Notes under the pieces: model-generated
The model's input: the letters and a program-made list of their open reading frames with translations, nothing else
The model's database searches: none
Told to the model about the DNA's origin: nothing
In this document: piece by piece, positions 1,870 through 20,251 of the stretch
How the letters are laid out: each line of letters opens with the position of its first letter
How positions within the stretch are numbered: the first letter of the stretch is position 1
Position numbers and translations under genes: made by a program
Assembly (NCBI GenBank): GCA_963931685.1
Contig: OZ007038.1
Location: 529,964-593,963, forward strand
Source of the DNA: an uncultured Bacilli bacterium
GTDB lineage: Bacteria > Bacillota_I > Bacilli_A > RF39 > UBA660
Length of the DNA: 64,000 nucleotides
Direction: 5' to 3'

Positions 1870-2289
1870 ATGCCAACTATTAATCAACTTGTTAGAAAAA
1901 GAAGAGGTTCTAAAACTAGAAAGAGTAAATCACCAATGTTAAATATTGGTTACAACAGCAAGGACAAAAAAGAAACAGTAAGTAATTCTCCACAAAAACG
2001 TGGTGTATGTACTCGTGTTGGAACTAAAACACCAAAGAAACCAAACTCAGCTTTAAGAAAATATGCGCGTGTTAGACTTTCAAATGGTAAAGAAGTAGAT
2101 ACTTATATTCCAGGAGAAGGACACAATTTACAAGAACACAGTGTTGTACTTGTTCGTGGTGGACGTGTTAAAGACTTAATCGGTGTTCGTTATCACATTA
2201 TTCGTGGTACTATGGATACTGCTGGAGTTGATGCAAGAAGACAAGGCCGTTCTAAATACGGTGCTAAAAAACCAAAAGGAAATAAATAA
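1870..2289 (+). CDS. rpsL: 30S ribosomal protein S12
   Basis: [10 protein letters not shown]...[19 protein letters not shown]...[19 protein letters not shown] is the canonical S12 sequence. An RBS GGAGG lies upstream. Confidence 0.97.
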
Positions 2290-2319
2290 TTTTAAAATAA
2301 ATTTGGAAGGAGGATTATT

Positions 2320-2787
2320 ATGCGTAAAAGAAGAGCTGTTAAAAGAGATGTTTTACCAGATCCAATTTACAATTCTAAGGTTGTTACTAAATTAATTAAC
2401 CAAATTATGTTAGATGGTAAAAAAGGAACTGCACAAACAATTCTTTATGGTGCGTTTGATATGGTTAAAGAAAAAACTGGCAGTGAACCAACTGAAGTTT
2501 TTAATAAAGCTTTAGAAAATATCAAACCAGCTTTAGAAGTTAAGACAAGACGTGTAGGTGGAGCTAACTATCCAGTACCTATCGAAGTACGTCCTGATCG
2601 AGCTCAAGCTTTAGGACTACGTTGGCTTGTACAATATGCTCGTTTAAGAGGAGGACATTCTATGGCTGAAAATTTGGCTAATGAAATAATCGATGCTTCT
2701 AACGGTGTTGGAGCTGCGGTTAAAAAACGTGAAGAAACTCACAGAATGGCAGAAGCTAATAAAGCATTTGCTCATTATAGATGGTAA
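2320..2787 (+). CDS. rpsG: 30S ribosomal protein S7
   Basis: [27 protein letters not shown]...[25 protein letters not shown] is the canonical S7 sequence. Confidence 0.97.
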
Positions 2788-2808
2788 TTATAAGAAAGGA
2801 AATAAAAT

Positions 2809-4881
2809 ATGGCTCGTGAATATAGTTTAGAAAAAACTCGTAATATTGGTATCATGGCCCACATTGATGCAGGTAAGACTACATGTACTGAAAGAATTTT
2901 ATTCCATACTCATAAGATTCATAAAATTGGTGAAACACATGATGGTGAATCTCAAATGGACTGGATGGAGCAAGAACAAGAACGTGGTATTACTATTACT
3001 TCTGCAGCAACAACTGCATATTGGAATGGCTATAGATTAAATATTATTGATACTCCAGGTCACGTTGACTTTACTGTTGAGGTTCAAAGAAGTTTACGTG
3101 TACTTGATGGTGCAGTTGCGCTTATTGATGCACAAGCTGGTGTTGAACCACAAACTGAAACAGTTTGGAGACAAGCAACTGAATACAATGTTCCTAGAAT
3201 GATTTTTGCCAATAAAATGGATAAAATGGGAGCAGATTTTGAATTTAGTTTAAAGAGTATTGAAGAGCGTTTAGGTGTTAATGCTAAACCAATTGAATGG
3301 CCAATTGGAGCTGAAAGTGATTTCAATGGTGTTGTTGATTTAGTAACTAAAACAGCTTATAAATACGATGGAAAGCCCGAAGAAAATCCTGAAATTATCG
3401 ATATTCCTGCAGATTTAGTAGATATAGTTGAAGAAAAACGTAATGACTTAATCGAAGCAGTTGCAGAGTTTGATGATGATTTAATGAATAAATATTTAGA
3501 GGGAGAAGAAATTTCTATTGATGAAATTAAAGCGGCTATTAGAAAGGGAACTTTAGCTGTTAAATTCTTCCCTGTAATGTGTGGTACTGCACTTGGAAAC
3601 AAAGGTATCAAATTATTACTTGATGCTGTTGTTGACTATTTACCAGCACCTACAGATGTTGAAGCAATTGAAGGTGTTGATATGAATGGTAATGAAATTA
3701 AAAGACATCCTAGTGATAATGAACCATTTTCAGCTTTAGCATTTAAAGTTATGACTGATCCATTTGTTGGACGTTTAACTTTCATCAGAGTTTATTCTGG
3801 TCATTTATCTAATGGTTCATATGTATTAAATTCTAATAAAGATAAGAAGGAAAGGGTAGGACGTATCTTACAAATGCATGCTAATCACAGACAAGAAATT
3901 ACAGATGTTTATACAGGAGATATTGCAGCAGTAGTTGGTCTTAAAGCTACAACTACAGGTGATACTTTATGTGATGAAAAACATGCTTGTATATTAGCTC
4001 CTATGGAATTCCCAGAACCAGTTATTGAACTTGCTGTTGAACCAAAATCTAAAGATGACCAAGATAAGATGGCTTTGGCTTTACAAAAATTATCTGAAGA
4101 AGACCCAACATTTAGAGCTACAACTGATCATGAAACTGGTCAAACTATCATTGCTGGTGTTGGTGAATTACACTTAGACATCATTATTGATAGAATGAAA
4201 AGAGAATTTGGTGTTGAAGCTAATGTTGGTAATCCACAAGTTGCTTATAGAGAAACAATTAAGCAAAAAGGTGATTGTGAAGGAAAATATATTAAACAAT
4301 CAGGTGGCCGTGGACAATATGGTCATGTGTGGGTTGAATTTGAACCTAATCCTGGTAAAGGATATGAGTTTGTTGATGCTATTGTTGGTGGTGTTGTTCC
4401 AAGAGAATACATTCCAGTAGTAGATAAAGGCTTACAAGAGGCTATGGAATCTGGTATTTTAGCAGGATATCCAGTAATTGATGTTAAAGCTACTTTACAT
4501 GATGGATCTTATCATGATGTAGATTCATCTGAAATGGCATTTAAAGTTGCGGCATCTTTAGCTTTAAAAGAAGCTAAAAATAAATGTAATCCTGTTATAT
4601 TAGAACCAATCATGAGTGTTGAAGTAACAGTTCCAGAAGAGTTCTTAGGAACAGTTATGGGTGATATTACTGCAAGACGTGGTAGACCAATGGGTCAAAG
4701 TTCACGTGGTAATGCGTTAAGCATCGATGCAATGGTACCACTTTCAGAAATGTTTGGTTATGTAACAAGTTTGCGTTCTAATACACAAGGTAGAGGTAAC
4801 TTCTCAATGAAGTTTGATCATTATGAGGAAGTACCTAAGAATATTGCAGAAGATATTATCAAAAAAAATGGTGGAAACTAA
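2809..4881 (+). CDS. fusA: Elongation factor G
   Basis: The 690-aa product carries the G-domain motifs [17 protein letters not shown] and NKMD, plus the EF-G C-terminal domains. Confidence 0.97.
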
Positions 4882-4891
4882 ATAAAAATAG

Positions 4892-4920
4892 TTGAAATTT
4901 TAGTTTAGTCATGCTACAAT
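4892..4920 (+). promoter_or_regulatory. Internal promoter for tuf: TTGAAA, a 17-bp spacer, then TACAAT.
   Basis: TTGAAA at 4892-4897 and TACAAT at 4915-4920, in the fusA-tuf intergenic region. Separate tuf promoters are common in bacteria. Confidence 0.5.
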
Positions 4921-4952
4921 GTTTATTGAAATAGAAAGAGGAGGAAATTAAT

Positions 4953-6143
4953 ATGGCAAAAGAAAAATTTGACCGTTCAAAACCACATGTTAATATTGGT
5001 ACTATTGGACACGTTGACCATGGTAAAACAACATTAACTGCGGCTATTACAAAATATTTATCAGATCAAAATCCTAGCTGGGCTAAATTCGAAGCATATG
5101 CTGATATCGATAAAGCTCCAGAAGAAAGAGAACGTGGTATTACTATTAACACTGCTCATATCGAATATGAGACAGCTAATAGACACTATGCACACGTTGA
5201 CTGCCCAGGCCACGCTGACTATGTTAAAAACATGATCACTGGTGCTGCTCAAATGGATGGTGCTATCTTAGTTATTGCTGCTACAGATGGACCTATGGCA
5301 CAAACTCGTGAACACATCTTACTTTCACGTCAAGTTGGAGTACCTCGTATGGTTGTATTCTTAAATAAATGTGATATGGTAGATGATGAAGAATTATTAG
5401 ACTTAGTTGAAATGGAAGTTCGTGAATTATTAACTGAATATGGTTATGATGGCGACAACACACCAATTATCAGAGGTTCTGCTTTAAAAGCTCTTGAAGG
5501 AGATGCTGCTTACGAAGCTAAAATTGGTGAATTAATGGATGCTGTTGATTCATGGATTGAAACTCCAGTTCGTGACAATGATAAACCATTCTTAATGCCA
5601 ATTGAAGATGTATTCACTATTACAGGTCGTGGTACAGTTGTTACTGGACGTGTTGAACGTGGTGAATTAAAATTAAATGAAGAAGTTGAAATCGTTGGTT
5701 TAAAACCTACTAAGAAAACAGTTGTAACTGGTATCGAAATGTTCAGAAAACAACTTGACTTTACTGAAGCAGGAGATAACACAGGTTTATTACTTCGTGG
5801 TGTAAGCCGTGATGAAGTTGAACGTGGTCAAGTTATCGCTAAACCAGGATCAGTTACTCCACACACTAAGTTTAAAGCTCAAGTTTATGTACTTAGTAAA
5901 GAAGAAGGTGGAAGACATACTCCATTCTTCAGTAACTATCGTCCACAATTCTACTTCCGTACAACTGATGTAACTGGTGTTATTGAATTACCTGAAGGTG
6001 TTGAAATGGTAATGCCTGGTGACAATGTTGAAATGACAGTAGAATTAATCGCACCAATCGCTATTGAAAATGGTACTAAATTCTCTATCCGTGAGGGTGG
6101 TAGAACAGTTGGTGCTGGTAACGTTTCAGAAGTTATCGAATAA
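4953..6143 (+). CDS. tuf: Elongation factor Tu
   Basis: The 396-aa product carries [23 protein letters not shown] and NKCD. It is classic EF-Tu. Confidence 0.98.
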
Positions 6144-6477: not shown

Positions 6478-7728
6478 ATGAAAAAGTATATAACGAGAAA
6501 TGTTGAAAAAGTTGTTAAAAATTTGTCTCGTCAATTTCCGGTAGTAATGGTTACTGGACCAAGGCAGGTTGGAAAAACTACAATGCTAAGACATATTAAC
6601 AAAGAAATTAATTACGTAACACTAGATGATTTAAATGTACGTAATTTAGCAGTTAATGATCCTGAACTTTTTTTAGAAACATACGAACCACCTTTAATTA
6701 TTGATGAATTTCAATATGTCCCTAATTTACTTTCTTATATTAAAATAAAAGTTGATGAGATGAGAATTGATAAAACTTTTAATGATACTAAAAGTTTTGA
6801 TGCTTTATATTATTTAACTGGTTCTCAAAGTTTTGTTTCTATGAAAAATGTTAGTGAATCATTAGCTGGAAGGGTTGGAATTATAGAAATGAATGGACTT
6901 TCTACTTCTGAATTACAAGGTATAGATAAAATGCCATTTGTTCCTAATATTTTGCAATTGAAAAATAATTTGAATAATAAGATGGAAACAAATAAACTTT
7001 TTGATAGAATTTTTAAAGGAAGTTATCCAGAACTTTATGTTAACGAAAATATTAGTGTTGAAACTTTTTATAGTAGTTACGTTAAAACTTATATTGAGCG
7101 AGATATTAGAGATTTAATAAATATTAGTGATGAAATTAAATTTATGAAATTTATGACAAGTGTGGCTGCTAGAACTGGTGAAGAATTAAATATTACTACG
7201 GTGGCAAATGATGCGGAGATAAGTGTTCCTACAGCTAATAACTGGTTGTCTATTTTAGTCAACACAGGATTGGTAGTGCTTTTAGAACCTTTTTCTAATA
7301 ATGTGATTAAAAGAACAATTAAAAGACCCAAAATCTATTTTATGGATACTGGACTTGCGTGTTATTTAGCTAAATATCCTAGTTCGGATATATTGGAAGT
7401 AAGTAGTTATTCGGGACATATTTTTGAAACATATGTGGTAAGTGAAATTATTAAAAGTTATGCTAATAACGGAAAAGATTATAAGAAATATTTATTTTAT
7501 TATAGAGATGAAAAAAAGAGGGAAATTGATTTGATTATAGATTATGAAAATATATTATATCCTGTAGAAATAAAGAAAGGTAAACATCCAAATGGTGAAT
7601 GTGTAAAAAATTTTTCTGTTCTTAATAAATTAAATAATGAAATTGCTCAAGGAATTGTTTTGTGTATGATAGACCAAATATTTCCAATTGATAGAAACAA
7701 TTATTATGTACCGATAAGTTATATATGA
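6478..7728 (+). CDS. AAA+ ATPase of the DUF4143 family (ATP-binding protein)
   Basis: Walker A VVMVTGPRQVGKTT and Walker B-like LIIDEFQYV. The C-terminal DUF4143-like region (REIDLIIDYENILYPVEIKKGK) resembles a restriction-endonuclease-like fold. Confidence 0.75.
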   Translation: MKKYITRNVEKVVKNLSRQFPVVMVTGPRQVGKTTMLRHINKEINYVTLDDLNVRNLAVNDPELFLETYEPPLIIDEFQYVPNLLSYIKIKVDEMRIDKTFNDTKSFDALYYLTGSQSFVSMKNVSESLAGRVGIIEMNGLSTSELQGIDKMPFVPNILQLKNNLNNKMETNKLFDRIFKGSYPELYVNENISVETFYSSYVKTYIERDIRDLINISDEIKFMKFMTSVAARTGEELNITTVANDAEISVPTANNWLSILVNTGLVVLLEPFSNNVIKRTIKRPKIYFMDTGLACYLAKYPSSDILEVSSYSGHIFETYVVSEIIKSYANNGKDYKKYLFYYRDEKKREIDLIIDYENILYPVEIKKGKHPNGECVKNFSVLNKLNNEIAQGIVLCMIDQIFPIDRNNYYVPISYI

Positions 7729-7834
7729 TATTAAGTATTTGTAAATTACTTGCAAGTACTTTTAATATGGCTATTTCATTGACTTTTATATAAAAAAACA
7801 ATATAATTTTATATAGAGAAAGGGTGTTTTTATT

Positions 7835-9115
7835 ATGCTACAAAAACCAAAAGGAACTTATGATATATATGGTGATAAGGCTTTAACTTATCTTTATTTT
7901 AGAAAGTTAGTAGAGGCTTTAATGGATAAATATAATGCGAAGTATTTTGAAACTCCAATATTTGAAAGTAGTGAACTTTTTCATAGAGGTGTTGGTGAAA
8001 CAACGGATATAGTAAGTAAAGAAACTTACGATTTTAAAGATAGAGGAGATAGAAATATAACACTTAGACCAGAAGGAACTGCTGGTATTGTTAGAAGTTT
8101 TATTGAAAATAAATTATATGCGGAGAATTTACCTTTAAAGGCTTGGTATTTAGGTCCTATGTTTAGATATGAAAGACCACAAGCAGGCAGATATAGAGAG
8201 TTTTATCAGTTTGGTTTTGAAGCTTTTGGTAGCTCTGATGCAATGATGGATGCGGAAGTTATTGGTATTGTTTGTAATTTATTTAAAATTTTAGGTTTGA
8301 AAGGGGTTAGTGTAAATATAAATACTTTAGGAGATAAGGAATCTAGAGAAAATTATCGAAAAGCATTACTTGATTATTTTAAACCTTATTTGAATGATTT
8401 ATGTGATGATTGCAGGAGAAGATATGAAAAAAATCCATTACGAATTTTAGACTGTAAAGTAGATAGTTCAAATGAAATTATGAAAAATGCTCCTAAAATG
8501 ACTGATTATTTGAATGAAGAAAGTAGAGAACACTTTGATAAAGTTAAAGAATATTTAGATGTGATGGGTATAAATTATAAAGTCAATTCAAGTATTGTTA
8601 GAGGGCTTGATTATTACACTCATACTGTATTTGAAGTTCAAGCTGATATTGAAGGGTTTGGCTCACAAAATACTTTAGCGGCTGGTGGAAGGTATGATCA
8701 TTTAGTTGAATTTGTTGGTGGGCCTAGTGTACCTGGTGTTGGTTTTGCGGTTGGACTTGAAAGGTTGTTTTTGGCTTTAGATGCAGAAAACATAGATATT
8801 AGAGAAATAATATGTCCAGATGTTTACATATTTAGTGCAGATGATGAGCAAAAGCCTTATGTTTTATCACTTTCTAATGATTTAAGACTTGCTGGTTTTA
8901 ATGTTGAGATAGATTATAATGGTAAGAGTTTTAAAAGTAATTTCAAACAAGCTGATAAAGTGAATGCTAGATATATTATTATAATCGGTGAAGAAGAAGT
9001 GGAAAGTAAATTGTTAACTGTTAAGAATAATGAAACAAAAGAAGAATATAAGGTTAAATTAGATAAAATAATAGAATTTTTAGATGAAAAATTAGGTGAG
9101 GAACATGAAGATTAA
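7835..9115 (+). CDS. hisS: Histidine--tRNA ligase
   Basis: The 426-aa product carries class II aaRS motifs (FRYERPQAGRYREFYQ, GGRYD) and a C-terminal anticodon-binding domain. Confidence 0.95.
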   Translation: MLQKPKGTYDIYGDKALTYLYFRKLVEALMDKYNAKYFETPIFESSELFHRGVGETTDIVSKETYDFKDRGDRNITLRPEGTAGIVRSFIENKLYAENLPLKAWYLGPMFRYERPQAGRYREFYQFGFEAFGSSDAMMDAEVIGIVCNLFKILGLKGVSVNINTLGDKESRENYRKALLDYFKPYLNDLCDDCRRRYEKNPLRILDCKVDSSNEIMKNAPKMTDYLNEESREHFDKVKEYLDVMGINYKVNSSIVRGLDYYTHTVFEVQADIEGFGSQNTLAAGGRYDHLVEFVGGPSVPGVGFAVGLERLFLALDAENIDIREIICPDVYIFSADDEQKPYVLSLSNDLRLAGFNVEIDYNGKSFKSNFKQADKVNARYIIIIGEEEVESKLLTVKNNETKEEYKVKLDKIIEFLDEKLGEEHED

Positions 9116-10829
9116 TAATACTAGTATAAATAAAAAAAATGTTGATGAGGTTGTTACACTTTATGGTTGGGTTAATAAAAAAAGAGATTTAGGTGGACTT
9201 ATATTTATTGATTTAAGAGATAGAAGTGGACTAATTCAGTTAGTAGTAAATCCAGATAGTAAAGTATATGAAGTTGCTAGTACACTTAAAAATGAATATG
9301 TTATTAAAGTTAGTGGTAAGGTTGTTTTAAGAAAAGAAGCTAATAAGAATTTGAAAACTGGTGAGGTTGAAGTTGAAGTTCAAAAGCTAGAGATTTTAAA
9401 TAAGTCGGCGGAGCTTCCATTTGATTTAAATAATATGACAGCTTTAGAAGATACTAGATTGAAATATCGTTATTTAGACTTAAGAAGAGAAGAACTTAAG
9501 AATAATTTATTTATTAAACATAAGATTATGCAAAGTGCAAGAAAATATTTAAATTCTTTAGAATTTATGGAAATTGAAACTCCAATTTTATGTAAGTCAA
9601 CTCCAGAAGGAGCGAGAGATTACTTAGTACCTTCTAGAGTGAATAAAGGATGTTTTTATGCATTACCACAGTCACCACAACTTTTTAAACAAATACTTAT
9701 GATGAGTGGTATGGAAAAATATTATCAAATAGCTAGATGTTTTAGGGATGAAGATTTACGTGCAGATAGACAGCCAGAATTTACTCAAATAGATATGGAA
9801 ACAAGTTTTATGTCAGAAGATGAAATCATGAGTATTACAGAGGGTTTACTTTATAATGTTTTTAAAGAAGTAAAAGATATTGAAATTAAATTACCTATTG
9901 ATAGAATGACTTATGATGAGGCGATTAATTTATATGGTTCAGATAAACCTGATTTAAGATTTGAAAATCCAATTTTTGATATTACAGATAATTTTATAGA
10001 TAGTGATTTTAGTTTGTTTAAAACAATAATAAATGATGGCGGAATTATTAATGCTTTAGTATTTAATGTGGCTGATAAATATTCTAGAAAAGATATTGAT
10101 AAATTAACTGATTATGTCAAAACATATGGGGCTAAAGCTTTAGCTTTCCTAAAGTATAATGATGAGTTTACTGGTAGTATTGCTAAGTTTATAACACCTG
10201 AAATTGGTAAAGCTTTAAAAGAAAAATTAAATTTAAAGACTAATGATTTAATTTTAATTATTGCTGGTAATAAGAAAATGGTAAAAACATCTTTAGGTGC
10301 TTTAAGGTGTAAAATAGCTAGAGATTTAGATTTAATTGATAAAAATAAATATGCATTAACTTGGGTAACGGATTTTCCAATGTTTGAATATAGTGAGGAA
10401 GAAGGTAGATATATATCTTGCCATCATCCGTTTACTTTACCAAAGGATGTTAATAGTTTAAGTGACAAGGAAAATGCTAAAGCATATGCTTATGATATAG
10501 TTATAAATGGCTATGAAGCTGGTGGCGGAAGTTTGAGAATATATAATCCAGATGATCAAGAAAAGGTTTTAAATGAACTTGGATTTAGTAAAGAAGAGGC
10601 TGAAGCAAAATTTGGATTTTTGTTAAATGCTTTAAATTATGGATGTCCTCCACATGGTGGGCTTGCTATTGGTTTAGAAAGACTTACTATGATATTGTGT
10701 GGGACAGAAAATATTCGTGATGTAATTGCTTTTCCCAAAACAACTAGTGCATCATGTTTGATGACTGAAGCACCTAGCGAAGTAACTGAAAAACAGTTAG
10801 AAGAATTACATATAAAATTAAACGATTAA
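9096..10829 (+). CDS. aspS: Aspartate--tRNA ligase
   Basis: The 577-aa product has an N-terminal OB fold and the motifs FRDEDLRADRQPEFTQID, QSPQLFKQ and GGGSLRI. It overlaps the hisS stop by 20 nt, the typical hisS-aspS arrangement. Confidence 0.95.
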   Translation: MRNMKINNTSINKKNVDEVVTLYGWVNKKRDLGGLIFIDLRDRSGLIQLVVNPDSKVYEVASTLKNEYVIKVSGKVVLRKEANKNLKTGEVEVEVQKLEILNKSAELPFDLNNMTALEDTRLKYRYLDLRREELKNNLFIKHKIMQSARKYLNSLEFMEIETPILCKSTPEGARDYLVPSRVNKGCFYALPQSPQLFKQILMMSGMEKYYQIARCFRDEDLRADRQPEFTQIDMETSFMSEDEIMSITEGLLYNVFKEVKDIEIKLPIDRMTYDEAINLYGSDKPDLRFENPIFDITDNFIDSDFSLFKTIINDGGIINALVFNVADKYSRKDIDKLTDYVKTYGAKALAFLKYNDEFTGSIAKFITPEIGKALKEKLNLKTNDLILIIAGNKKMVKTSLGALRCKIARDLDLIDKNKYALTWVTDFPMFEYSEEEGRYISCHHPFTLPKDVNSLSDKENAKAYAYDIVINGYEAGGGSLRIYNPDDQEKVLNELGFSKEEAEAKFGFLLNALNYGCPPHGGLAIGLERLTMILCGTENIRDVIAFPKTTSASCLMTEAPSEVTEKQLEELHIKLND

Positions 10830-10863: not shown

Positions 10864-11808
10864 ATGAATAGACAAATGTTTTTTGAATTACTTAAAGAAA
10901 ATATATGCATTCAAGATGAAGCTTTAAAAAAATTAGTATGGGTATTATATAATAATTTTTATGGAGAAAATAGTATTAAAGAAAATATCTTACTTATAGG
11001 TGATCTTGGAAGTGGAAAAACTACTATGATAAAGGAAACTGCAGAACTTATGGATATACCGATGGGTGAGGTTTATAATGCTTTTTCATCAAATGAAATA
11101 AATTATGATTTGATTGCTAGCGGTTTATTTCAAATGAATATGAATGGTAATAATGGTGGAGAAGGTATTTTATTACTTCATGATTTTCAAGATAGTTTTA
11201 TTTATGGTCATAACCAAGAATTTAATGCAATGATAGCTTCTGGAATTTTGAATTTAGGTGAATATGGTTATTTTAATTCATCTGATGTAATATTTATTGG
11301 TGAGATAGATACTGATAATGTTCGTAATATTTTTGCAGGGAGTCAAGGATTATCTGATTTAGATAATGATGATTTTGTATCGCCAACTTTAAATATTATA
11401 AAAGATTATTTATCAAAGGCAAACCGGATTACTGAAGATGAAAATGGTGATAGATCAGCAAATGTTGGTTTTGAAAAATATATTTCAGATATAATTAGAA
11501 ATCGTTTTTTAAGTTCTAATAGTATGCAAGCTTTTAAAAGAAAAATTTATATGGAAGATATGGGTACTGTGGAAATAGTTAAAGCTTTATCATCACCAAT
11601 TTCTGCTTTGAATTTATATAAAGATGATTTATTAGATGAATATATCGATTCAGATGTGTTTAGAAAAAAGGTTGCAGGATATATCTTAGAAAGTGGAGAA
11701 GGTCTTCATGCGACTGAAGCGGCTATTGAAAATACCTTTATAAATGATGCTAAAAAAAATAAGAAAGTTTTAAAAAAAGATTCTTTGTTTATTTCTCGCA
11801 GGAAATAA
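10864..11808 (+). CDS. Degenerate ClpX/HslU-like AAA+ protein, paralogue 1. Walker A is intact and Walker B has no Asp-Glu pair.
   Basis: LKKLVWVLYNNFYGE...ENILLIGDLGSGKTTMIKETAELMDIPMGEV parallels ClpX (AKKVLAVAVYNHYKR...[27 protein letters not shown]). The Walker B equivalent reads GILLLHDFQD, where ClpX has GIVYIDEIDK. The ClpX zinc-binding N-domain and C-terminal region are absent. Confidence 0.5.
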   Translation: MNRQMFFELLKENICIQDEALKKLVWVLYNNFYGENSIKENILLIGDLGSGKTTMIKETAELMDIPMGEVYNAFSSNEINYDLIASGLFQMNMNGNNGGEGILLLHDFQDSFIYGHNQEFNAMIASGILNLGEYGYFNSSDVIFIGEIDTDNVRNIFAGSQGLSDLDNDDFVSPTLNIIKDYLSKANRITEDENGDRSANVGFEKYISDIIRNRFLSSNSMQAFKRKIYMEDMGTVEIVKALSSPISALNLYKDDLLDEYIDSDVFRKKVAGYILESGEGLHATEAAIENTFINDAKKNKKVLKKDSLFISRRK

Positions 11809-11824
11809 AATCGCGGAGGTATTT

Positions 11825-12763
11825 ATGGAAACAAAAGAATTATATAATGAATTGAGAGATTTGCTATGTAATCAAGATAAGGCTTTAAAAGATCTTGTTT
11901 GGACTATAGCTAGAAATAGAAAATTAAATAGACCTAAAAATGCTTTATTGATAGGTGAACTAGGTAGTGGAAAAACTACAATGGTAGAATTAACTGCTCG
12001 TAAAATGGGTATACCTGTAGTTGGAATGTCAGGTTTTTTTACTCCACAAGGAGTAGAACCTATGGTTTTATATAATGCTTTTATGGGATTGTTTGCTGAA
12101 AATAATCAAAAAGGATGTCAAGGAATTGTTTTGATTCATGATATGAAAGATGTTTTTCTATATGGAGGTTTTTCTACTTTAAATTCTATAATTACTGCTG
12201 GTTCTTTTACTTATAATAATCATGTTATTGATGTTAAAAGTACTATGTTTATTGGTGAGATTGATAATAATGGTTTAGAAGATTGTTTTACTTCAAATCC
12301 TATATATACAATTGATGATATAGATAAAGCAATTTATCCTTCGGTATGTAGTAGTGATGAAGTTACTGAAGTAATTAGCAATATAATAGATGTTTATGGT
12401 GGAGTTACTGATGAAGAAGTAGATAGTAATATGTTTTATGATCAATATAGGGAAGCATTAAAAAAGACTTTTTTATCTCCAGAGTGCAGTAAAGTATTTA
12501 ATAAAAAAATTTTTATGGATGCGATTGGTTTTGAGGATATTAAAAAAGCCTTAAGTTCTCCAGTATCAGAATTACAAACATATAGTGATGATTTATGCGA
12601 AGAATATATTTCATCACCGCAATTTATAAATTCAGTGGCTGGACATATCAGTGAGAGTTTAGTTGGTTTACATGATTTAGATGATGCCGTTAGAGATGTA
12701 TCTAGAATAGATAGTAAAAGGAAGATTAAGGTTTATAAAGAGAATTCTTTATTAAAATTATAG
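11825..12763 (+). CDS. Degenerate ClpX/HslU-like AAA+ protein, paralogue 2 (tandem duplicate of the preceding gene)
   Basis: ALKDLVWTIARNRKLNRPKNALLIGELGSGKTTMVELTARKMGIPVVGMSG. The Walker B equivalent is GIVLIHDMKD. The product is collinear with paralogue 1 throughout, e.g. the shared C-terminal block IFMDAIGFEDIKKALSSPVSELQTYSDDL matching IYMEDMGTVEIVKALSSPISALNLYKDDL. Confidence 0.5.
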   Translation: METKELYNELRDLLCNQDKALKDLVWTIARNRKLNRPKNALLIGELGSGKTTMVELTARKMGIPVVGMSGFFTPQGVEPMVLYNAFMGLFAENNQKGCQGIVLIHDMKDVFLYGGFSTLNSIITAGSFTYNNHVIDVKSTMFIGEIDNNGLEDCFTSNPIYTIDDIDKAIYPSVCSSDEVTEVISNIIDVYGGVTDEEVDSNMFYDQYREALKKTFLSPECSKVFNKKIFMDAIGFEDIKKALSSPVSELQTYSDDLCEEYISSPQFINSVAGHISESLVGLHDLDDAVRDVSRIDSKRKIKVYKENSLLKL

Positions 12764-12765
12764 AT

Positions 12766-13563
12766 ATGGAAAAATATCAAGAAGTAGAAAGAAGTATTAT
12801 TAAAAAATTTAGACCATCTATATGGCATAATTTTGTTAAAGCAGTTAGTAATTATGATTTGATTGGTGAAAATGATAAGATAGCTGTTTGTATAAGTGGT
12901 GGTAAAGATTCTTTTTTGCTTGCTAAATGTTTAGAAGAACTTCAAAAACATGGAAAGATTAAATTTGATTTAGAATATGTTATCATGAATCCAGGGTATA
13001 CTGATGAGGTTTTAAATAAAATTAAGGGTAATTTAAAAATTTTGAATATAAATGCTCATATATTTGAAAGCCCTATTTTTAAAATTATTAGTAAAGAAAA
13101 AAATCCTTGTTATTTATGTGCTAAAATGCGAAGAGGATATTTGTATAATTATGCTAAGGAACTTGGGTGTAATAAAATTGCATTAGGTCATCACTTTGAT
13201 GATGTTTTAGAGACTATTTTAATGAATTTAATATATAATGGAATGTATGCGGGAATGATGCCTAAACTTAGAAGTGATAATTTTGAGGGTATGGAGCTTA
13301 TTAGGCCTTTATATTTAATTAGAGAAGATAGTATTTTAGATTGGGTCAAATATAATAATTTATCATTTATTGATTGTGCGTGCAGTGTTACTAAAAAAGA
13401 TATAGGTAAACGTAAAGAGATGAAAGAATTAGTTAAAACTTTGAAAGAATATTATGCAGATGCAGATAGGAATATATTTAATTCTATGCATAATGTAAAA
13501 TTAGATAAAGTAATAAATTATTTTTACGAAGATAAAGCAAATGTCTTTTTAGATAAATATTAA
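12766..13563 (+). CDS. ttcA: tRNA-cytidine(32) 2-sulfurtransferase, TtcA family (PP-loop ATPase with an Fe-S cluster)
   Basis: CISGGKDS (PP-loop), CYLCAKMRRGYLY, IALGHHFDDVLETILMNLIYNGMYAGMMPKL, IRPLYLIRE and IDCACS are collinear with E. coli TtcA (VCLSGGKDS, CSLCSRLRRGILY, IALGHHRDDILQT...PPKL, PCNLCGS). Confidence 0.75.
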   Translation: MEKYQEVERSIIKKFRPSIWHNFVKAVSNYDLIGENDKIAVCISGGKDSFLLAKCLEELQKHGKIKFDLEYVIMNPGYTDEVLNKIKGNLKILNINAHIFESPIFKIISKEKNPCYLCAKMRRGYLYNYAKELGCNKIALGHHFDDVLETILMNLIYNGMYAGMMPKLRSDNFEGMELIRPLYLIREDSILDWVKYNNLSFIDCACSVTKKDIGKRKEMKELVKTLKEYYADADRNIFNSMHNVKLDKVINYFYEDKANVFLDKY

Positions 13564-13591
13564 CTATAATTTAAATGTTATAGTTTTTTTA
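13562..13591 (+). terminator. Rho-independent terminator after ttcA
   Basis: The hairpin AACTATAA-tttaaatg-TTATAGTT is followed by TTTTT. Confidence 0.7.
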
Positions 13592-13680
13592 TATATATAT
13601 ATAAAAATTATATAGCTATGATTTTTAATTATATTATTATACTTTAAAAAAAATAGATTGTAAGGTATAATATAGGGGAA

Positions 13681-14274
13681 ATGGAGGGTATTATGGCTAA
13701 AGAAAGAGAAGTTACAATTCTTAATATTGATGAGGAGACGTTTATTAAACGATTGTTAGAACATGGTGCAATTAAAAAGGATGAATTTTTACAAAGAAGA
13801 TATACATATGATTTTAATCCAGTAATGCCTAATAAATGGATTAGACTTAGGACAAATGGGAAAAAAACAACTTTGACTATTAAAGAGATAAGGGATAAGA
13901 ATGCTATTGATGGAACAATGGAATTAGAAACGGTTGTTGGTGATTTTGATGTTATGAATAGTATCTTAAAAGAACTAGGATATGTTTATAGAAATTATCA
14001 AGAGAATTACCGAAAAATTTATGTTATAGAGAATGTAGAAATTTCAATTGATTCTTGGCCTATGATACCAACTTATGCTGAAATAGAGGGCAAGAGTAAT
14101 GAAGATGTTGTACGAACTTTAGAATTATTAGGTTATACTTTAGAAGAGGCAACTACTTTAGATGTTACTTCTATTTATAATGAAATATATGGTATTGATT
14201 TACTTGGAATAAAAGAATTAAAGTTTGAAGGGAGTAATCATGAAAGTATGTTGGAACATAACAAGCAAATGTAA
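13681..14274 (+). CDS. CYTH-domain protein (triphosphate tunnel metalloenzyme fold; CyaB/thiamine-triphosphatase-like). The N-terminal ExExK motif is divergent.
   Basis: The CYTH-like blocks are WIRLRTNGKKTTLTIKE, KIYVIENVEISIDSWP and YAEIEGKS. Compare B. subtilis YjbK: ALRIRHKG..TLTLK, FDHSFY and YEIEFEV. The alternative start at 13693 (MAKE...) has RBS GGAGGG. Confidence 0.55.
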   Translation: MEGIMAKEREVTILNIDEETFIKRLLEHGAIKKDEFLQRRYTYDFNPVMPNKWIRLRTNGKKTTLTIKEIRDKNAIDGTMELETVVGDFDVMNSILKELGYVYRNYQENYRKIYVIENVEISIDSWPMIPTYAEIEGKSNEDVVRTLELLGYTLEEATTLDVTSIYNEIYGIDLLGIKELKFEGSNHESMLEHNKQM

Positions 14275-14977
14275 TAGGAATTGTAAGTATTGTTTTAAAT
14301 TTAATAAAGATGATTTGTCTTTAGAAAAAAATAAAAAGGTACTTGATAATTTAGTTAAACTTGGGGTAAAAAAAATTTCGTGGACTGGCGGAGAACCTTT
14401 TTTATACAAGGAGCTTCCTATATTATTAAAATTAAGTAAAAAATATGGAATTATTAATTCTGTAAATACTAATTTAACAACTGTTGATATAGATAATTTA
14501 AAAGAAAAAATTGAAAATATTGATAGACTGATTATTTCTTTGGATTTTGTTCGTGATGATCTAAATTTAAAATATGGCATTGGTAAAGATTATTATTTAC
14601 ATGTGTCAAAGATTTTGAAAAAAATTAAAGATATTAATCCTGATATAATTATACAATTGAATACAGTATTATTTAGCGGAAATATTTCTCGTATGAATGA
14701 GTTATATGAAGAGATTAATAAATATAATATAGATTATTGGAAAATAATAAGATTTTTACCAATTAGAGGAAAAGCATACGCAGAAAAAGATGTTTTAGCA
14801 ATCACGGATGAACAGTTTGAGAATTTTGTTTCTCAGTTTAATAATAGAAAACAAAAATTTAAAATAATTATTCATGGATTAACAGAAATGGAAAAAAAGC
14901 ATATTATTGTGTTAAGTTCAGGAAAGCTTATTTATAGTGAAAAGGGGCAGGATGTGGAAGTTAAATCTTTAATATGA
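14240..14977 (+). CDS. Viperin-like radical SAM enzyme (prokaryotic viperin / pVip-like), 246 aa
   Basis: CNRNCKYCF (CxxxCxxC) with ISWTGGEPFL matches viperin CNYKCGFCF...INFSGGEPFL. LIISLDFVRDDLNLKYGIGKD matches [28 protein letters not shown] matches FKINSVI. YWKIIRFLPIRGKA...LAITDEQFENFVSQF matches RWKVFQCLLIEGEN...FVIGDEEFERFLERH. The start at 14240 has RBS GGGAG and overlaps the CYTH gene by 35 nt. The track's TTG start at 14225 is less likely. Confidence 0.65.
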   Translation: MKVCWNITSKCNRNCKYCFKFNKDDLSLEKNKKVLDNLVKLGVKKISWTGGEPFLYKELPILLKLSKKYGIINSVNTNLTTVDIDNLKEKIENIDRLIISLDFVRDDLNLKYGIGKDYYLHVSKILKKIKDINPDIIIQLNTVLFSGNISRMNELYEEINKYNIDYWKIIRFLPIRGKAYAEKDVLAITDEQFENFVSQFNNRKQKFKIIIHGLTEMEKKHIIVLSSGKLIYSEKGQDVEVKSLI

Positions 14978-14993
14978 GGAAAGGAAGTTAATA

Positions 14994-15887
14994 ATGGATA
15001 AAAATATCAACTTAAATTTATATCGAATTTTTTATGAAGTGGCCAAATATCATAGTATTTCAGATGCTGCTAAAAATATGTATTTGTCGCAGCCAGCAAT
15101 TAGTAAAGCTATTAAAAACTTGGAAAGATAATTAGATGTTATGTTGTTTTATAGAACACTAAATGGAATAATTTTGACTGATAAAGGAAAAGAATTATTT
15201 TTATTAGTTGAAGAAGCTTTGAGTAGTTTTAGACAAGCAGAGAAGAAAATGATGGAAAATAAAAATTTAGAAAAAGGTTCTTTATCTATTGGGGTTCGTT
15301 CTAATGTTGCTTCCTTTTATTTGCTTGATAAAATTGCTGATTTTCACAAAAAATACAATAAGATTGATATAGTAATTATTGATAGACCTAGTAGTGAATT
15401 ATTAGAGATGCTTTCCAATAATGAAATTGATTTTGTACTTGATTCGTTATCTGATAAGGATGAATTAGATGGTTTTGATGTAAAACCTTTGGATAATTTT
15501 ACTCATGTTTTTGTAACACTTCCTAATTTGAAAATTTTATCTGATAAAAACGTATATCATTTAAAAGATTTAGAATCACTTCCGCTTATATTACCTGTTT
15601 CCCATAGTTCTCATAGACAATATTTAAATAATTTAGCAAAGGAAAATAATACAGAATTTAATAATGTACTTTCAATTGAAACGAGTGAACTTATTTATAG
15701 TATGGTTAAAAAAGGACTTGGAATAGGGTATATTTTAAAAGATATGGTAAAAGGTGATATTGATAGAGGTAATTTACGAGAAATAAAAATTAAAGAAAAA
15801 TTACCTGATATATCTTTAAATTTGATATGTAAGGAAAAAAATTTAACTGAGGCTCCACGGAGGTTTATAGATGAGTATTTAAAATAA
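14994..15887 (+). pseudogene. LysR-family transcriptional regulator interrupted by an in-frame TAA at 15129-15131 (HTH 14994-15128; effector-binding domain 15141-15887)
   Basis: The ATG at 14994 encodes a classical LysR HTH (LYRIFYEVAKYHSISDAAKNMYLSQPAISKAIKNLER) and then hits TAA. The same frame continues as LDVMLFYRTLNGIILTDKGKELF..., the LysR linker and substrate-binding domain (ORF 15141-15887). The downstream ATG has no RBS. Confidence 0.6.
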
Positions 15888-15909
15888 CATGAAAAAATGT
15901 TATTTTTTT
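15885..15909 (+). terminator. Rho-independent terminator after the lysR remnant
   Basis: The hairpin TAACAT-gaaaaa-ATGTTA is followed by TTTTTTT. Confidence 0.6.
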
Positions 15910-16051
15910 ATTACTTTTTTTGATGGCAATTACTTATAAATATATGACTTTAAACTTTAGTTATATGAATAATTTATAGTTATGTTTTTATGAAATATTA
16001 GTATTTTTACAATGCCTTAATTTGTGATACATTTAAATTGAAGGAGGAAAT

Positions 16052-17530
16052 ATGTATAAGGTAATTGCAATTAGTGGTTATTCTGGTAGTGGTAAAACTA
16101 CTATTAGTGAGGAGATATTAAAAAATTGTAATGATTTAATTTATTTTGATTTTGGTTTTTTATTTAGGCCTGTGACATACTATTTAATGAATGAACTGAA
16201 AATGACTGAAGATACTATTCGTACAATGGTGATGAGTGGAGAGTTAAAGAAAAAAATTAAATTAACTTACAGAGTTTTAGATAATAAAGTTGAAGTAGGA
16301 GTAAATAATAATTTTTATGATTATGATATTTTAAATAGTTTAAAAATGAATATGGATACAGTTATGGTTGGTTCAATAATTGGTGATGAATTAAATGATG
16401 AATTGAGAGTTATAATTGATGATTTAAAGAAAAGTAGTAATATTTTACTTAATGCGAGAAGACCAATTGTGGTATATCCGGATGCGGATTGTCATATTTT
16501 TTTAGAAACTGATTTTGATGAAAGAGTAAGAAGAAAAATGTTGATGAATGGTGAAGATTACGAAACAACTGTAAGTAAACTTATGAAACGTGATCAAAAA
16601 GAGAAATCTAGTGGTTTTTGGGAAAAATATGATTTTACTAAAACTATTGATACTACTGGTTTATCTAAAGAAGAGGTATTACAAAAAGTTTTGAAAATTA
16701 TAAATAACAATTTTGTTTATTTTAATAATTTAACTTTAATTTTAGGTTCTTATAGGTGTAATAAAAATTGTCCATATTGTATTGCAAAGAATAATCAAAA
16801 GTTTTCTGTTTGTGATAATTTGGAACGATTAGATGAAATTTTAAATGAGTTACAAGAAAATGATATACGATTTAAAAGGTTTGTAGTGAGTGGAAATGGT
16901 GAACCATCATTATATTCTTTAGAAGATTTAAGGTTGATAAAGGAAAGTTTACTCAAATATAGGGATTTATTTGAAATAGTTAGAGTACATTCTTCTGGTA
17001 ATATATTTAACGAAGAAGATAAATTTGATATTTTCGGTTTAGCTGATTTACCACTTGAGTTTGAAATCCTTAGAGTTGCTTTAGATTCAAATGTTGATAT
17101 GGACGTGCTTGAATATAACAATGATTATTTAGAAAGTCCATTATTTAAAAGAGGTAATATAAAATGTGATATTGCTTTGACAGATTATTTAGAAAATACT
17201 GATTTATTATTTCAATTAAATCATTTTTTGGAAAATAATCCATCAATTAAAAAGGTTAGATTAAAAAGATTATTAGTAGGGGATAATGATACTACAATAC
17301 AAGCTAAATGGGTTAAAGAACATTCACTTGATAATGATGAAATTCAGAGAGTGGTTAAAGAATTAGGATTAACTTTGAAAAATGGTATTTATCAATCTGA
17401 GGATAGAAAAATTCTTTATAAAATGAGTGGAGATTATGATTTTGATTATGTTGTTAATGCAGGTGAATTTCAAAATTATGAAAATAAAAAATGCCATATC
17501 AAAGTTTTGAGAAGAAAGTTAGGTGGTTAA
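16052..17530 (+). CDS. Fusion protein: N-terminal cytidylate kinase (Cmk)-like P-loop NMP kinase domain (aa 1 to ~222) plus C-terminal viperin-like radical SAM domain (aa ~225-492)
   Basis: The N-terminal half is collinear with B. subtilis Cmk: IAISGYSGSGKTT matches IAIDGPAAAGKST, FDFGFLFRPVTY matches IDTGAMYRAITY, DADCHIFLETDFDERVRRKM matches NAEVKIFLLASVEERAKRRY, and IDTTGLSKEEV matches IDTTSLSIQEV. The C-terminal half carries CNKNCPYC (CxxxCxxC), FVVSGNGEPSL, ILRVALDSNVDMDVL (viperin [16 protein letters not shown]) and KKVRLKRLLVGDND (viperin VRWKVFQCLLIEGEN). Confidence 0.7.
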   Translation: MYKVIAISGYSGSGKTTISEEILKNCNDLIYFDFGFLFRPVTYYLMNELKMTEDTIRTMVMSGELKKKIKLTYRVLDNKVEVGVNNNFYDYDILNSLKMNMDTVMVGSIIGDELNDELRVIIDDLKKSSNILLNARRPIVVYPDADCHIFLETDFDERVRRKMLMNGEDYETTVSKLMKRDQKEKSSGFWEKYDFTKTIDTTGLSKEEVLQKVLKIINNNFVYFNNLTLILGSYRCNKNCPYCIAKNNQKFSVCDNLERLDEILNELQENDIRFKRFVVSGNGEPSLYSLEDLRLIKESLLKYRDLFEIVRVHSSGNIFNEEDKFDIFGLADLPLEFEILRVALDSNVDMDVLEYNNDYLESPLFKRGNIKCDIALTDYLENTDLLFQLNHFLENNPSIKKVRLKRLLVGDNDTTIQAKWVKEHSLDNDEIQRVVKELGLTLKNGIYQSEDRKILYKMSGDYDFDYVVNAGEFQNYENKKCHIKVLRRKLGG

Positions 17531-17531
17531 A

Positions 17532-18242
17532 GTGAGACAGATATTAAAATTTATTGGAACAGGAGGTGCTTTTTCTAGTAAGTATGTAAATAATTCGGCT
17601 TATTATTATTTAAAAAATGATGAGATACTTTTATTTGATTGTGGGGAAACGGTGTTTCATGAAATTTTAAAATTAGATATTATAACCGAGAAGATTAAAA
17701 GGATAGATATTGTGATTACACATTTTCATAGTGATCATGTTGGAAGTTTGGGAAGTTTGATTTTTTATTTAAGATTTAAAAAGATAAAAGAAGTTAATGT
17801 GATTTTTCCGATAAAGACACTTCCTTATATGTTATTACAAATTTATGGCATAGATGAAAGTCTTTTTAAAGTAAAATTGCCAGAAGAAGTAGATGGATAT
17901 TATATTAAAGAATATGAACAATTACATGGTGATGTTGATGTAGATGGTAATATTGTATCAATGCCTAGTTATGGATATCATGTGGTGAATGATAATGATA
18001 ATTTCTTTTATAGTGGTGACACATGTATTATAAGTGATATAATATTAGAGAAGTTTAAAAGTAAAGAGATTAAGATAATGTATCACGAAGTTACAACAGA
18101 TGGATATAAATCGCATATGCAGTTAGAAAATTTAGTAGAGATTATTCCTTTTGAGGATAGACAAAGAGTAGTTTGTATGCATATGGGTGATGGTGTAGAT
18201 GTATCAGAAATAGAAAAATTTGGATTAGAAAGTGTGAGGTAA
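17532..18242 (+). CDS. MBL-fold metallo-hydrolase, RNase Z / PhnP-like (possible cyclic-nucleotide or phosphodiester hydrolase)
   Basis: FIGTGGAFSS...LLFDCGE and ITHFHSDHVGSLGS (HxHxDH). A GTG start at 17532 follows RBS AGGTGG directly after the upstream stop. The track's start at 17523 is an alternative. Confidence 0.65.
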   Translation: MRQILKFIGTGGAFSSKYVNNSAYYYLKNDEILLFDCGETVFHEILKLDIITEKIKRIDIVITHFHSDHVGSLGSLIFYLRFKKIKEVNVIFPIKTLPYMLLQIYGIDESLFKVKLPEEVDGYYIKEYEQLHGDVDVDGNIVSMPSYGYHVVNDNDNFFYSGDTCIISDIILEKFKSKEIKIMYHEVTTDGYKSHMQLENLVEIIPFEDRQRVVCMHMGDGVDVSEIEKFGLESVR

Positions 18243-18244
18243 TT

Positions 18245-18820
18245 ATGAAAGAAGAATTAGAAGTTTGTGTGAGATCTTTAGTTCCTTTTGAAGATTTATA
18301 TAATGATATGATAGATTTAGGTTTTCATGTACAGGAAGATTTTGTGTTGAATGATATTTACATGGTTAAAAATGATGTAGAAGTATCTTTAGATAATGAA
18401 AATGTAATTTTTTCTGATTATGTTTTAATTAGAGAAACAGTAGGAAAACGAAAAATGCTTGTTTTAAAACATAAGGAATTAAATTCTAAAGGTGAGATAA
18501 CAAAACAAGAGTCAGTTAAATGTCCAATTACAGATTGTGATAAAGCATATGATTTTATGAAAGCTATCGGTTATAAAAAATTATTTGAAATAAGTGATCA
18601 TAATGTTTTGATGAGTAATGGAAAAAATGAAATTTATATTCAAAGAGTTAAAGGGTTAGGTACTTATGTAGAAATGGAACAAAAGAATTTACTTTTGGAA
18701 AATAATAATGGTAATACAATTGATGAAATGAAAAATGTTTTATGTGATTATAATTTAAAAATTGATACTAGTGATTATTTTGTGAGAAAAGCATATGATG
18801 CTTTAAAAGAAACTGTCTGA
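18245..18820 (+). CDS. Second CYTH-like domain protein (divergent)
   Basis: YVLIRETVGKRKMLVLKHKE, EIYIQRVKGLGTYVEMEQK and the N-terminal EELEVCVR follow the CYTH pattern (RIR..TLK, G.f.EiE). It lies 2 nt after the MBL gene stop. Confidence 0.45.
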   Translation: MKEELEVCVRSLVPFEDLYNDMIDLGFHVQEDFVLNDIYMVKNDVEVSLDNENVIFSDYVLIRETVGKRKMLVLKHKELNSKGEITKQESVKCPITDCDKAYDFMKAIGYKKLFEISDHNVLMSNGKNEIYIQRVKGLGTYVEMEQKNLLLENNNGNTIDEMKNVLCDYNLKIDTSDYFVRKAYDALKETV

Positions 18821-19237
18821 TTGTTATTACGCATATCCGTTGTTTCCTTTATTTATGGTTTAAATTTATAATTAAACTAAAAGCAGGCTGTGAATACTTG
18901 TTTTTGCATATGTTTATAGATTTATAAATTTAATAAAACTTTTAAAATAAAGAATATAATTGTTATATTTAGCTATGAATAGTAACATCTGATTATGGTA
19001 AATATTGTTAACTTTTGTAAAGATACTGGTCAAACTAAAATATATATGATATAATTTAATTGTCTAAAAGAAGAATACCGCTATGAAAAACCTACTAAGT
19101 ATAACGATTGGGAATCTAATTCGTTGGTGGTGTAGAATACTTTAATTTATTAGAGGATCCTAAAACTGATGATGTGATGCCCACCTGGGAGATCAGGTTT
19201 TTAATTCGTTAAGGTTTCTCTTTTGGACTTTGCTTAA

Positions 19238-19276: not shown

Positions 19277-20251
19277 TTAGTTTTTAGCTAATTCTTTTAT
19301 TTTTTCAGTGTTTTTAAAATTGGTTTTAGCTATTTCATTTAAAACATCAATACCATATTCTTTTACTAATTTAGCACCGACTTCATCGACTATTGGTCCA
19401 GCACCTTTAGGAAGCGTGTGATTATATTTTTTTGATAGTTTGTCGAACTCTTTAATAAATATATATCTACTTATGATTGCTGAACAAGCAACAGATAAGC
19501 ATTGGTCTTCGGCTTTGGTAATAAAAGTAATATTTCTTTGAACATTAGGTACTTGTTTTAAATAATTATAATAAACATATTTTTCAGCAAATTGATCAAC
19601 AACTATATAATCATATTGTTTGTATTGTTTTGTCATTTCTATTAAAACTTTATTGTGTAAAATAGCTTTCATGGCATTCATGTTGTATTTATTATGTCTT
19701 TGGTTATATTCAGTGTTGGAAAGAGTCATCGTATAGTATGGAATTTTTTTAATAATTTGAGGAGTTATTTTTAAAATTTGTTCATCGGTTAATTTTTTAG
19801 AATCTTTAACGCCTAAACTTTCTAAAAATGGTATATTTTCTTTAGTAACATATGAGGCTGTTACAATAATGGGTCCAAAGTAATCTCCTGTTCCAACTTC
19901 ATCTGAACCAATGGTGTTTGCATAGTAGACTTTAGAGTTTTTTTTAGTTTCTTTTTTTTTCTCATTACTAGCAACTTTCATATCAACTTTTTTATTTGGA
20001 TTTAGATTTTTTTCCATTTGTGACCATAGATTTGCATCTATATCTGCACTTATACCTTGAAAAACAGCTTTACCTGATTCATATAAAGTAACAACAGTAT
20101 CTGCTTCATCAGCTTGAAAGACAGCATATGGTGGTGTTTTTATACGTTTTTTTTCTTCAAAGTATTCGTTCATCTTGTCCATTGTGTTTTTACTTACTTT
20201 TAGTGTAATTGTTTTTACGGGTTCTTTTTTCATGTTATCACCTATACACAT
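19277..20251 (-). CDS. rnhC: Ribonuclease HIII
   Basis: The 324-aa product carries the RNase HII/HIII catalytic motif GSDEVGTGDYFGPIIV and the N-terminal extension typical of HIII. Confidence 0.75.
   Translation of the reverse strand: MCIGDNMKKEPVKTITLKVSKNTMDKMNEYFEEKKRIKTPPYAVFQADEADTVVTLYESGKAVFQGISADIDANLWSQMEKNLNPNKKVDMKVASNEKKKETKKNSKVYYANTIGSDEVGTGDYFGPIIVTASYVTKENIPFLESLGVKDSKKLTDEQILKITPQIIKKIPYYTMTLSNTEYNQRHNKYNMNAMKAILHNKVLIEMTKQYKQYDYIVVDQFAEKYVYYNYLKQVPNVQRNITFITKAEDQCLSVACSAIISRYIFIKEFDKLSKKYNHTLPKGAGPIVDEVGAKLVKEYGIDVLNEIAKTNFKNTEKIKELAKN

Follow-up and report, generated by a model that had tools for sequence, protein, structure and literature searches.

A tandem pair of degenerate ClpX-derived AAA+ genes between aspS and ttcA in an uncultured Bacilli bacterium

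Two adjacent genes, here called A and B, lie within a 64,000-nucleotide stretch of contig OZ007038.1 from an uncultured RF39-type Bacilli bacterium of the gut (hereafter the window). Both encode AAA+ modules whose fold and ClpX ancestry are established by sequence profiles and predicted structures, and both are under purifying selection. The pair is a lineage-restricted variant of the well-known ClpX family, and its evolutionary intermediates form an unusually clear series. Regarding function, we favour a reading to which we assign a probability of about 0.55: A and B are ClpX-derived, degenerate and duplicated core genes whose products act as a nucleotide-dependent, non-threading oligomer. 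The pair and its putative operon are arranged as follows.

7779-7807, forward strand: TTGACT-17-TATAAT (11/12), the closest match to a sigma-70-like promoter, 5′ of hisS; a candidate operon promoter by consensus match only
7835-10829, forward strand: hisS and aspS, which precede the pair in the putative operon, assigned from open reading frames (ORFs), Pfam labels on orthologous loci and synteny
10864-11808, forward strand: gene A, 314 amino acids; ClpX-derived AAA+ module with large and small domain, no N-domain
11825-12763, forward strand: gene B, 312 amino acids; paralogue of A with the same architecture
12766-13563, forward strand: ttcA-like gene for a PP-loop tRNA thiolase, the conserved 3′ partner of the pair

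The two proteins align from end to end (33% identity, E 1e-50), which marks them as true paralogues, neither chance similarity nor halves of one gene. A preliminary description of this DNA, made from the letters alone, had already proposed adjacent, collinear ORFs of these lengths in one operon with ttcA. The layout agrees with it: all genes are co-oriented, 16 nt separate A from B and 2 nt separate the stop codon of B from the start of ttcA, and no terminator-like intergenic site was found from hisS through the end of ttcA. A GGAGG ribosome-binding site lies 7 nt 5′ of the ATG of gene B. The ttcA product matches the NCBIfam model TtcA NF007972 with E 7e-61 and 206 bits, under the 272-bit cut-off, and ttcA adjoins the AAA+ gene or genes in every locus that reaches that far. 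The window is AT-rich (~22-38% GC per kb).

Fold and descent from ClpX

Homologues of A and B form about 110 clusters at 90% identity. Nearly all are unnamed, one being labelled 'unknown [Firmicutes bacterium CAG:822]'. Neither protein reaches a Pfam or NCBIfam cut-off, in line with the preliminary description, which recognised no named family. With the NCBIfam ClpX model NF003745 (cut-off 359), A scores 23.7 bits and B 14.7; with TIGR00382 (cut-off 370.75), they score 20 and 17 bits. No publication or curated family describing the A/B family was found, the literature on ClpX-like proteins with TtcA, on ClpX paralogues and on RF39/CAG-822 included.

A single-sequence search of the PDB gave weak ClpX matches (E 0.006), and a family profile was needed for an informative result. 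The profile of an alignment of 64 sequences (A1) matched ClpX with E 1.3e-8 and HslU with 1.6e-5. Midasin headed the PDB matches of this profile and was rejected, as its score summed repeated P-loop matches with no specific homology. An exhaustive search of 1.84 billion representatives returned only 12 clusters with E ≤ 1e-30; most of the other matches listed, midasin-sized multi-AAA proteins aside, are 24-43% identical to E. coli ClpX. When compared by hhalign with a profile of 57 ClpX-type sequences, the family aligns over 291 columns with a probability of 99.9, residue 1 falling at E. coli ClpX ~64 and residue 314 at ~414.

The predicted structures agree. AlphaFold models built from family alignments have a predicted local distance difference test score (pLDDT) of 85.5 for A and 87.1 for B, and the top 50 PDB matches of the model of A in Foldseek are all ClpX, with 307-353 aligned columns. 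Both models show the AAA+ layout of an α/β large domain followed by an all-helical small domain, and both place a short β-hairpin just before the sensor-1 strand, as in the ClpX/HslU/Lon (HCLR) clade. Sequence profiles and predicted folds thus bear out the earlier view of A and B as ClpX/HslU-like AAA+ paralogues. That view also held that the C-terminal small domain was missing, which proved wrong: hhalign, Foldseek and the models all locate it at residues ~200-300, aligned to ClpX ~320-414, so A and B are not truncated at the C-terminus. The zinc-binding C4 N-domain is absent, as had been stated, since residue 1 aligns to ClpX residue ~64; neither protein has an N-terminal extension.

By sequence profile and by structure, A and B match ClpX best, and they are collinear with it from residue ~64 to ~414. 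The three proteins share the large and small domain fold, the helix before the P-loop, Walker A, the pre-sensor-1 β-hairpin and the small-domain helices. ClpX differs in having the C4 zinc N-domain, a Walker B with DE, GYVG, the pore-2, RKH and IGF loops and the sensor-2 Arg. It also differs in context: the ClpX gene lies next to tig and clpP, whereas A and B stand in tandem in a hisS-aspS-ttcA operon. HslU has an I-domain that A and B lack and is disfavoured against ClpX by the profiles; the catalytic motifs of A and B are degenerate relative to HslU as they are relative to ClpX.

Motifs compared with E. coli ClpX

The following motifs of A and B were placed on the sequence; counts below refer to 68 A-type and 42 B-type sequences.

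10999-11025, forward strand: Walker A of A, GDLGSGKTT (G46-T54), with G46, G49, G51 and K52 invariant
11164-11193, forward strand: degenerate Walker B of A, GILLLHDFQD (G101-D110), placed by hhalign
11293-11310, forward strand: sensor-1 motif of A, F-I-G-E-I-D (residues 144-149), a family hallmark with invariant Gly146-Glu147
11701-11709, forward strand: G-L-H of A (residues 280-282), with His282 at the position of ClpX sensor-2 Arg370 by hhalign
11954-11980, forward strand: Walker A of B, GELGSGKTT (G44-T52)
12122-12151, forward strand: degenerate Walker B of B, GIVLIHDMKD (G100-D109)

Walker A, described as intact from the outset, follows the GxxGxGK[ST] pattern in both proteins and is invariant across the ~110 homologue clusters; ClpX K125 is kept as K52. 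Neither protein has a Walker B of the form hhhhDE with the catalytic Glu. Against ClpX GIVYIDEID, hhalign places His106 of A at D184 and Asp107 at E185, which upholds the proposed loss of the Asp-Glu pair (LHDFQD in A, IHDMKD in B). The replacements are themselves conserved: H106 occurs in 68/68 A-type sequences and D107 in 66/68, and B-type sequences carry D at the second position in 40/42, with H, E or Q at the first (22, 11 and 7 sequences). In the sensor-1 strand, ClpX ILFICGGAF has become F-[IV]-G-E-[IV]-D with an invariant Gly-Glu, a motif also present in distant family members that retain the Walker B DE. His282 is found in 66/68 A-type and 41/42 B-type sequences.

Among the substrate-handling loops, the pore-1 GYVG is lost; the segment reads S-N-E-I-N-Y in A, and across the family it follows G-[FIVL]-[ND], where no Tyr is conserved. 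Profile alignment shows a 13-residue deletion at the pore-2 loop and an 11-residue deletion at the RKH loop. An IGF/LGF motif is absent from A and B, where the region is a variable linker (pLDDT <50 at residues 161-186 of A). The Arg finger R307 aligns to position 223, which is A/V/T in A-type and V/A/I in B-type sequences; the adjacent position 222 is K/R in 41/42 B-type sequences and acidic or amide in the A-type. With a basic residue one position before the finger, the Arg-finger status of the B-type is uncertain. On the alignments, the N-domain, the pore-1, pore-2, RKH and IGF loops and the sensor-2 Arg are real losses, as is the Arg finger in A. A1 has 25 invariant and 35 near-invariant columns, and new, strongly conserved family-specific motifs are FLS, SPxS, GLH and a C-terminal KV[LY]Kx(2)SL.

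Conservation, gene order and intermediates

Besides the window, 23 related loci drawn from metagenomes and metagenome-assembled genomes have the order hisS-aspS-A-B-ttcA. In all of these 23 loci but one, whose ttcA ORF is shortened, the genes are spaced by -14 to +36 nt. The complete metagenome-assembled chromosomes OZ007022.1 and OZ007025.1 carry the pair. A scan of 185,579 species, each represented by one genome, returned 17 loci from 17 GTDB species, all of them uncultured Bacilli, Candidatus Coprosoma or CAG:822; this count is a lower bound, as the scan used a single peptide pattern. CAG-822 corresponds to Ca. Coprosoma, of the order RF39 and family CAG-822 (PMC8035907). Neither a canonical clpX nor a canonical clpP turned up when the window and the related loci covered were searched by tblastn with the E. 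coli proteins, a result that holds for these stretches and not for the rest of the genome.

Both ORFs are intact and of full length in 24/24 A/B-type loci, the window included. Nine informative pairs give A and B a ratio of nonsynonymous to synonymous substitution rates (dN/dS) of 0.12-0.35, compared with 0.04-0.11 for aspS and 0.07-0.22 for ttcA in the same genomes. Protein identity among relatives is 49-67% for A and B and 82-87% for aspS. A and B are hence under purifying selection, with constraint roughly three-fold more relaxed than that of their neighbours.

Between L011 and L023, aspS has dS 0.10 and gene A dS 0.20, whereas gene B has dN 0.34 and dS 0.95, and its product measures 315 versus 309 amino acids; this suggests replacement of the gene B allele by recombination. 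Against L008, ttcA of the window has dS 0.215 and 95% protein identity, compared with 0.055 and 99% for aspS, which is consistent with recombination near the junction of the downstream island described below. Lastly, an 82-residue ORF stands alone between aspS and ttcA in L034 (5650-5898) and L035 (2371-2619). No similarity of this ORF to the AAA+ family is detectable, and it is no recognisable remnant; this lineage has apparently lost the AAA+ gene or had it replaced.

The nearest relatives outside the family are three longer, ClpX-like proteins (P0150, P0168 and P0220), encoded at related positions in other uncultured Bacilli.

L032:4530-6008: 492 amino acids, in the order hisS-aspS-ORF-[ClpX-like]-ttcA, with an 8-nt overlap with ttcA
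L038:3009-4553: 514 amino acids, directly after hisS
L039:2223-3656: 477 amino acids, directly after aspS

Like A and B these long forms follow hisS or aspS; unlike them, they are single-copy and retain the motifs. They keep GPTGxGKT, GYKG (not GYVG), hhhhDEI, EFIGR, GAR and mostly IGF, and carry an N-terminal region of ~150-200 amino acids without zinc-finger cysteines in place of the ClpX N-domain. They match ClpX with E 2.5e-58 to 1.6e-69 and HslU with ~1e-25 to 1.7e-31; their 198-235 bits lie under the NCBIfam ClpX cut-off of 359. Scores against the family hidden Markov model (HMM) form a graded series.

Core A/B family: 270-470 bits
P0114: 150 bits
P0117: 98 bits
P0119 and P0122: 82-87 bits
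P0123 and P0136: 71-78 bits
Long forms: 48-67 bits, nearest non-family relatives
E. coli ClpX: 31 bits

P0123 and P0136 are intermediates that keep the Walker B DE in the order aspS-AAA-AAA-ttcA. The pairs of L026-L028 and L042 have a first protein of 361 or 356 amino acids with a canonical Walker B (GIVLIDELE, GLIVIDELE); the second product of L026-L028 (297 amino acids) is degenerate. Both genes of the L026 pair score about equally against A-type and B-type HMMs, which is consistent with a separate or very early duplication. As these genes are about equidistant from A and B, the duplication would have occurred either twice or once very early. Long forms with intact motifs, intermediates retaining DE and degenerate duplicates, all a short way 3′ of aspS or hisS, may thus offer a natural series from an AAA+ motor to a non-motor.

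Possible modes of action and the adjacent island

The simplest reading of these comparisons would be progressive loss of the N-domain, loops and catalytic residues in a resident ClpX-type gene. The ancestor would have been a gene for a ClpX-type AAA+ unfoldase downstream of hisS/aspS in reduced-genome gut Bacilli (RF39 and relatives). In a CAG-822/Coprosoma-like clade, it would have lost the N-domain, the pore-1, pore-2 and RKH loops and the IGF loop for ClpP docking; the Walker B pair would have become His-Asp and the sensor-2 Arg a His, followed by tandem duplication. We infer that the products retain nucleotide binding by way of their intact P-loop, with slow hydrolysis or none. They would be unable to thread polypeptides or feed ClpP, and would instead act as a nucleotide-dependent binding or scaffolding oligomer or switch.

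Where both genes are present, this oligomer would probably contain both A and B. A hetero-oligomer is favoured by the conserved A/B difference at a trans-acting basic residue and by the occurrence of two tandem pairs at this locus in different lineages; it is plausible and not obligatory, since lineages with a single copy exist and a homomer can suffice there. The partner would most plausibly come from the same operon, namely TtcA or the aminoacyl-tRNA synthetases HisRS and AspRS encoded by hisS and aspS, a best guess suggested by translational coupling. Degenerate AAA+ subunits within AAA+ assemblies are represented by Torsin with LAP1/LULL1, chloroplast FtsHi and the clamp-loader subunits δ and δ′, which belong to other clades and have no specific sequence relationship to A and B. 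As both paralogues are degenerate in this lineage, the operon offers no obvious active partner subunit.

If correct, the favoured reading would describe a bacterial ClpX descendant shorn of the main unfoldase elements and yet under selection in a core operon. A and B may further point to an unrecognised tRNA or translation factor in RF39-type gut bacteria. Public data now list the genes without a name or as 'unknown'; 'ClpX-like degenerate AAA+ protein' would be a possible annotation.

Several observations weigh against the non-threading oligomer as we propose it. L036 has a single A-type copy, L024 a single B-type copy, and L034, from a related lineage, no AAA+ gene; a heteromer is thus not required, and some backgrounds dispense with the function. 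The evidence for a link to TtcA is gene order, and ttcA is not 3′ of the long-form gene in L038 and L039; conservation thus ties the genes to hisS/aspS no less than to ttcA. A profile alignment at ~15% identity underlies the Arg-finger column, which could be off by one residue. Finally, the catalytic-Glu position holds an Asp107 that hardly varies, and Glu147 of sensor-1 is invariant. With His106 and His282, these two could make slow or alternative catalysis or metal binding possible, which leaves 'pseudo-ATPase', the reading of the preliminary description, a provisional term.

The last point opens the strongest alternative, which we consider possible although clearly less probable than the favoured reading: A and B may be active ATPases or remodellers in which Asp107 serves as the base, assisted by Glu147 and His282, and which work from the ring surface without pore-loop threading. 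The (near-)invariance of D107, G146-E147, D149 and H282 in both paralogues suggests a site that is maintained rather than decayed. The fully conserved P-loop, the K/R beside the Arg-finger position in the B-type and the purifying selection on both genes point the same way. However, changes coincide at four canonical elements, namely the two residues of Walker B, the sensor-2 residue and the Arg finger of A. B-type proteins also accept H, E or Q as the first of the two Walker B residues, and every substrate-contacting loop is deleted.

A more specific proposal builds on gene order and is doubtful, though not negligible. The pair would be a ClpX-derived pseudo-unfoldase repurposed as a nucleotide-gated partner of the tRNA machinery, in which an A/B hetero-hexamer might hold or present TtcA, its Fe-S/sulfur donor, or tRNA. 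If true, this would give a bacterial ClpX descendant a protease-independent, non-threading role, and one locus would record a stepwise change from unfoldase to switch or scaffold.

It is improbable that A and B are functionless relics of a ClpX-like gene on the way to loss. Such decay could account for their higher dN/dS and protein evolution ~3x faster than that of flanking genes, for the absence of the gene in L034/L035 and for the single copies in L024 and L036. Relics would hardly be expected to keep intact ORFs in all 24 loci, a dN/dS well below 1, and the 25 invariant and 35 near-invariant columns, new family-specific motifs among them; moreover, the models are confident and well folded.

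Descent from another P-loop or AAA+ clade (clamp loader/RarA or TsaE-like), or from two halves of one disrupted gene, is very improbable. Scans of A and B against Pfam, NCBIfam, PADLOC and PHROGs returned sub-threshold P-loop matches only (TsaE, AAA, RFC, BrxF); the top Pfam match of A is TsaE and the top NCBIfam match of B the RFC large subunit. No family-level profile match to TsaE or to clamp loaders (RFC, RarA) extends beyond the P-loop. A rarA gene lies near hisS in L038, and in B. subtilis rarA lies near hisS-aspS. Clamp-loader/RarA ancestry was nevertheless rejected on the fold ranking and the pre-sensor-1 hairpin; the hhalign alignment to ClpX likewise contradicts a non-ClpX origin. 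The split-gene reading was rejected because either ORF spans a complete AAA+ module in the A-B and hhalign alignments. Both a non-AAA+ P-loop family and fragments of a single gene had been raised in the preliminary description; profile and fold searches speak against the former, and the completeness of each ORF against the latter.

Least probable of all is membership of the pair in the adjacent viperin-like defence or accessory island, which the same description suggested. Physical proximity is all that speaks for it, the island genes beginning about 120 nt past ttcA. L008-L010, ~98% identical to the window through aspS-A-B-ttcA, lack the island (13564-18994, 5.4 kb) cleanly, and the junction lies exactly at the ttcA stop codon. 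Most relatives (L001-L007 and others) carry the pair without the island, and no PADLOC or PHROG match is significant. The pair is a vertically inherited part of the housekeeping hisS-aspS-A-B-ttcA operon. The island is a strain-variable insertion, present at the same site in L013 at 81% identity, and contains the following genes.

13681-14274: CYTH/CyaB-like gene
14225-14977: viperin-like radical SAM gene (NF038283, 127 bits, below the 180-bit cut-off)
15141-15887: LysR-type regulator without N-terminal helix-turn-helix
16052-17530: CMP-kinase/radical-SAM fusion
17523-18242: RNase Z-like gene of the metallo-β-lactamase (MBL) fold
18245-18820: second CYTH-like gene

The second CYTH-like gene adjoins ttcA without the rest of the island in L005, L011 and L023. 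Between this gene and a convergent RNase HIII gene (19277-20251, reverse strand) lies a 6S/SsrS RNA (19058-19233, forward strand; Rfam RF00013, 49.9 bits, gathering score 46.4). No other stretch of the window matched Rfam, and ARAGORN detected no tRNA gene in the entire 64 kb. Upstream of hisS, the str-operon genes rpsL, rpsG, fusA and tuf (1870-6143) are assigned from ORF length and synteny with L001 only. They are followed by an ORF for a 416-residue P-loop ATPase (6478-7728, forward strand), whose position is taken by a 122-residue ORF in relatives such as L001 and L005; this ATPase ORF is probably another variable insertion.

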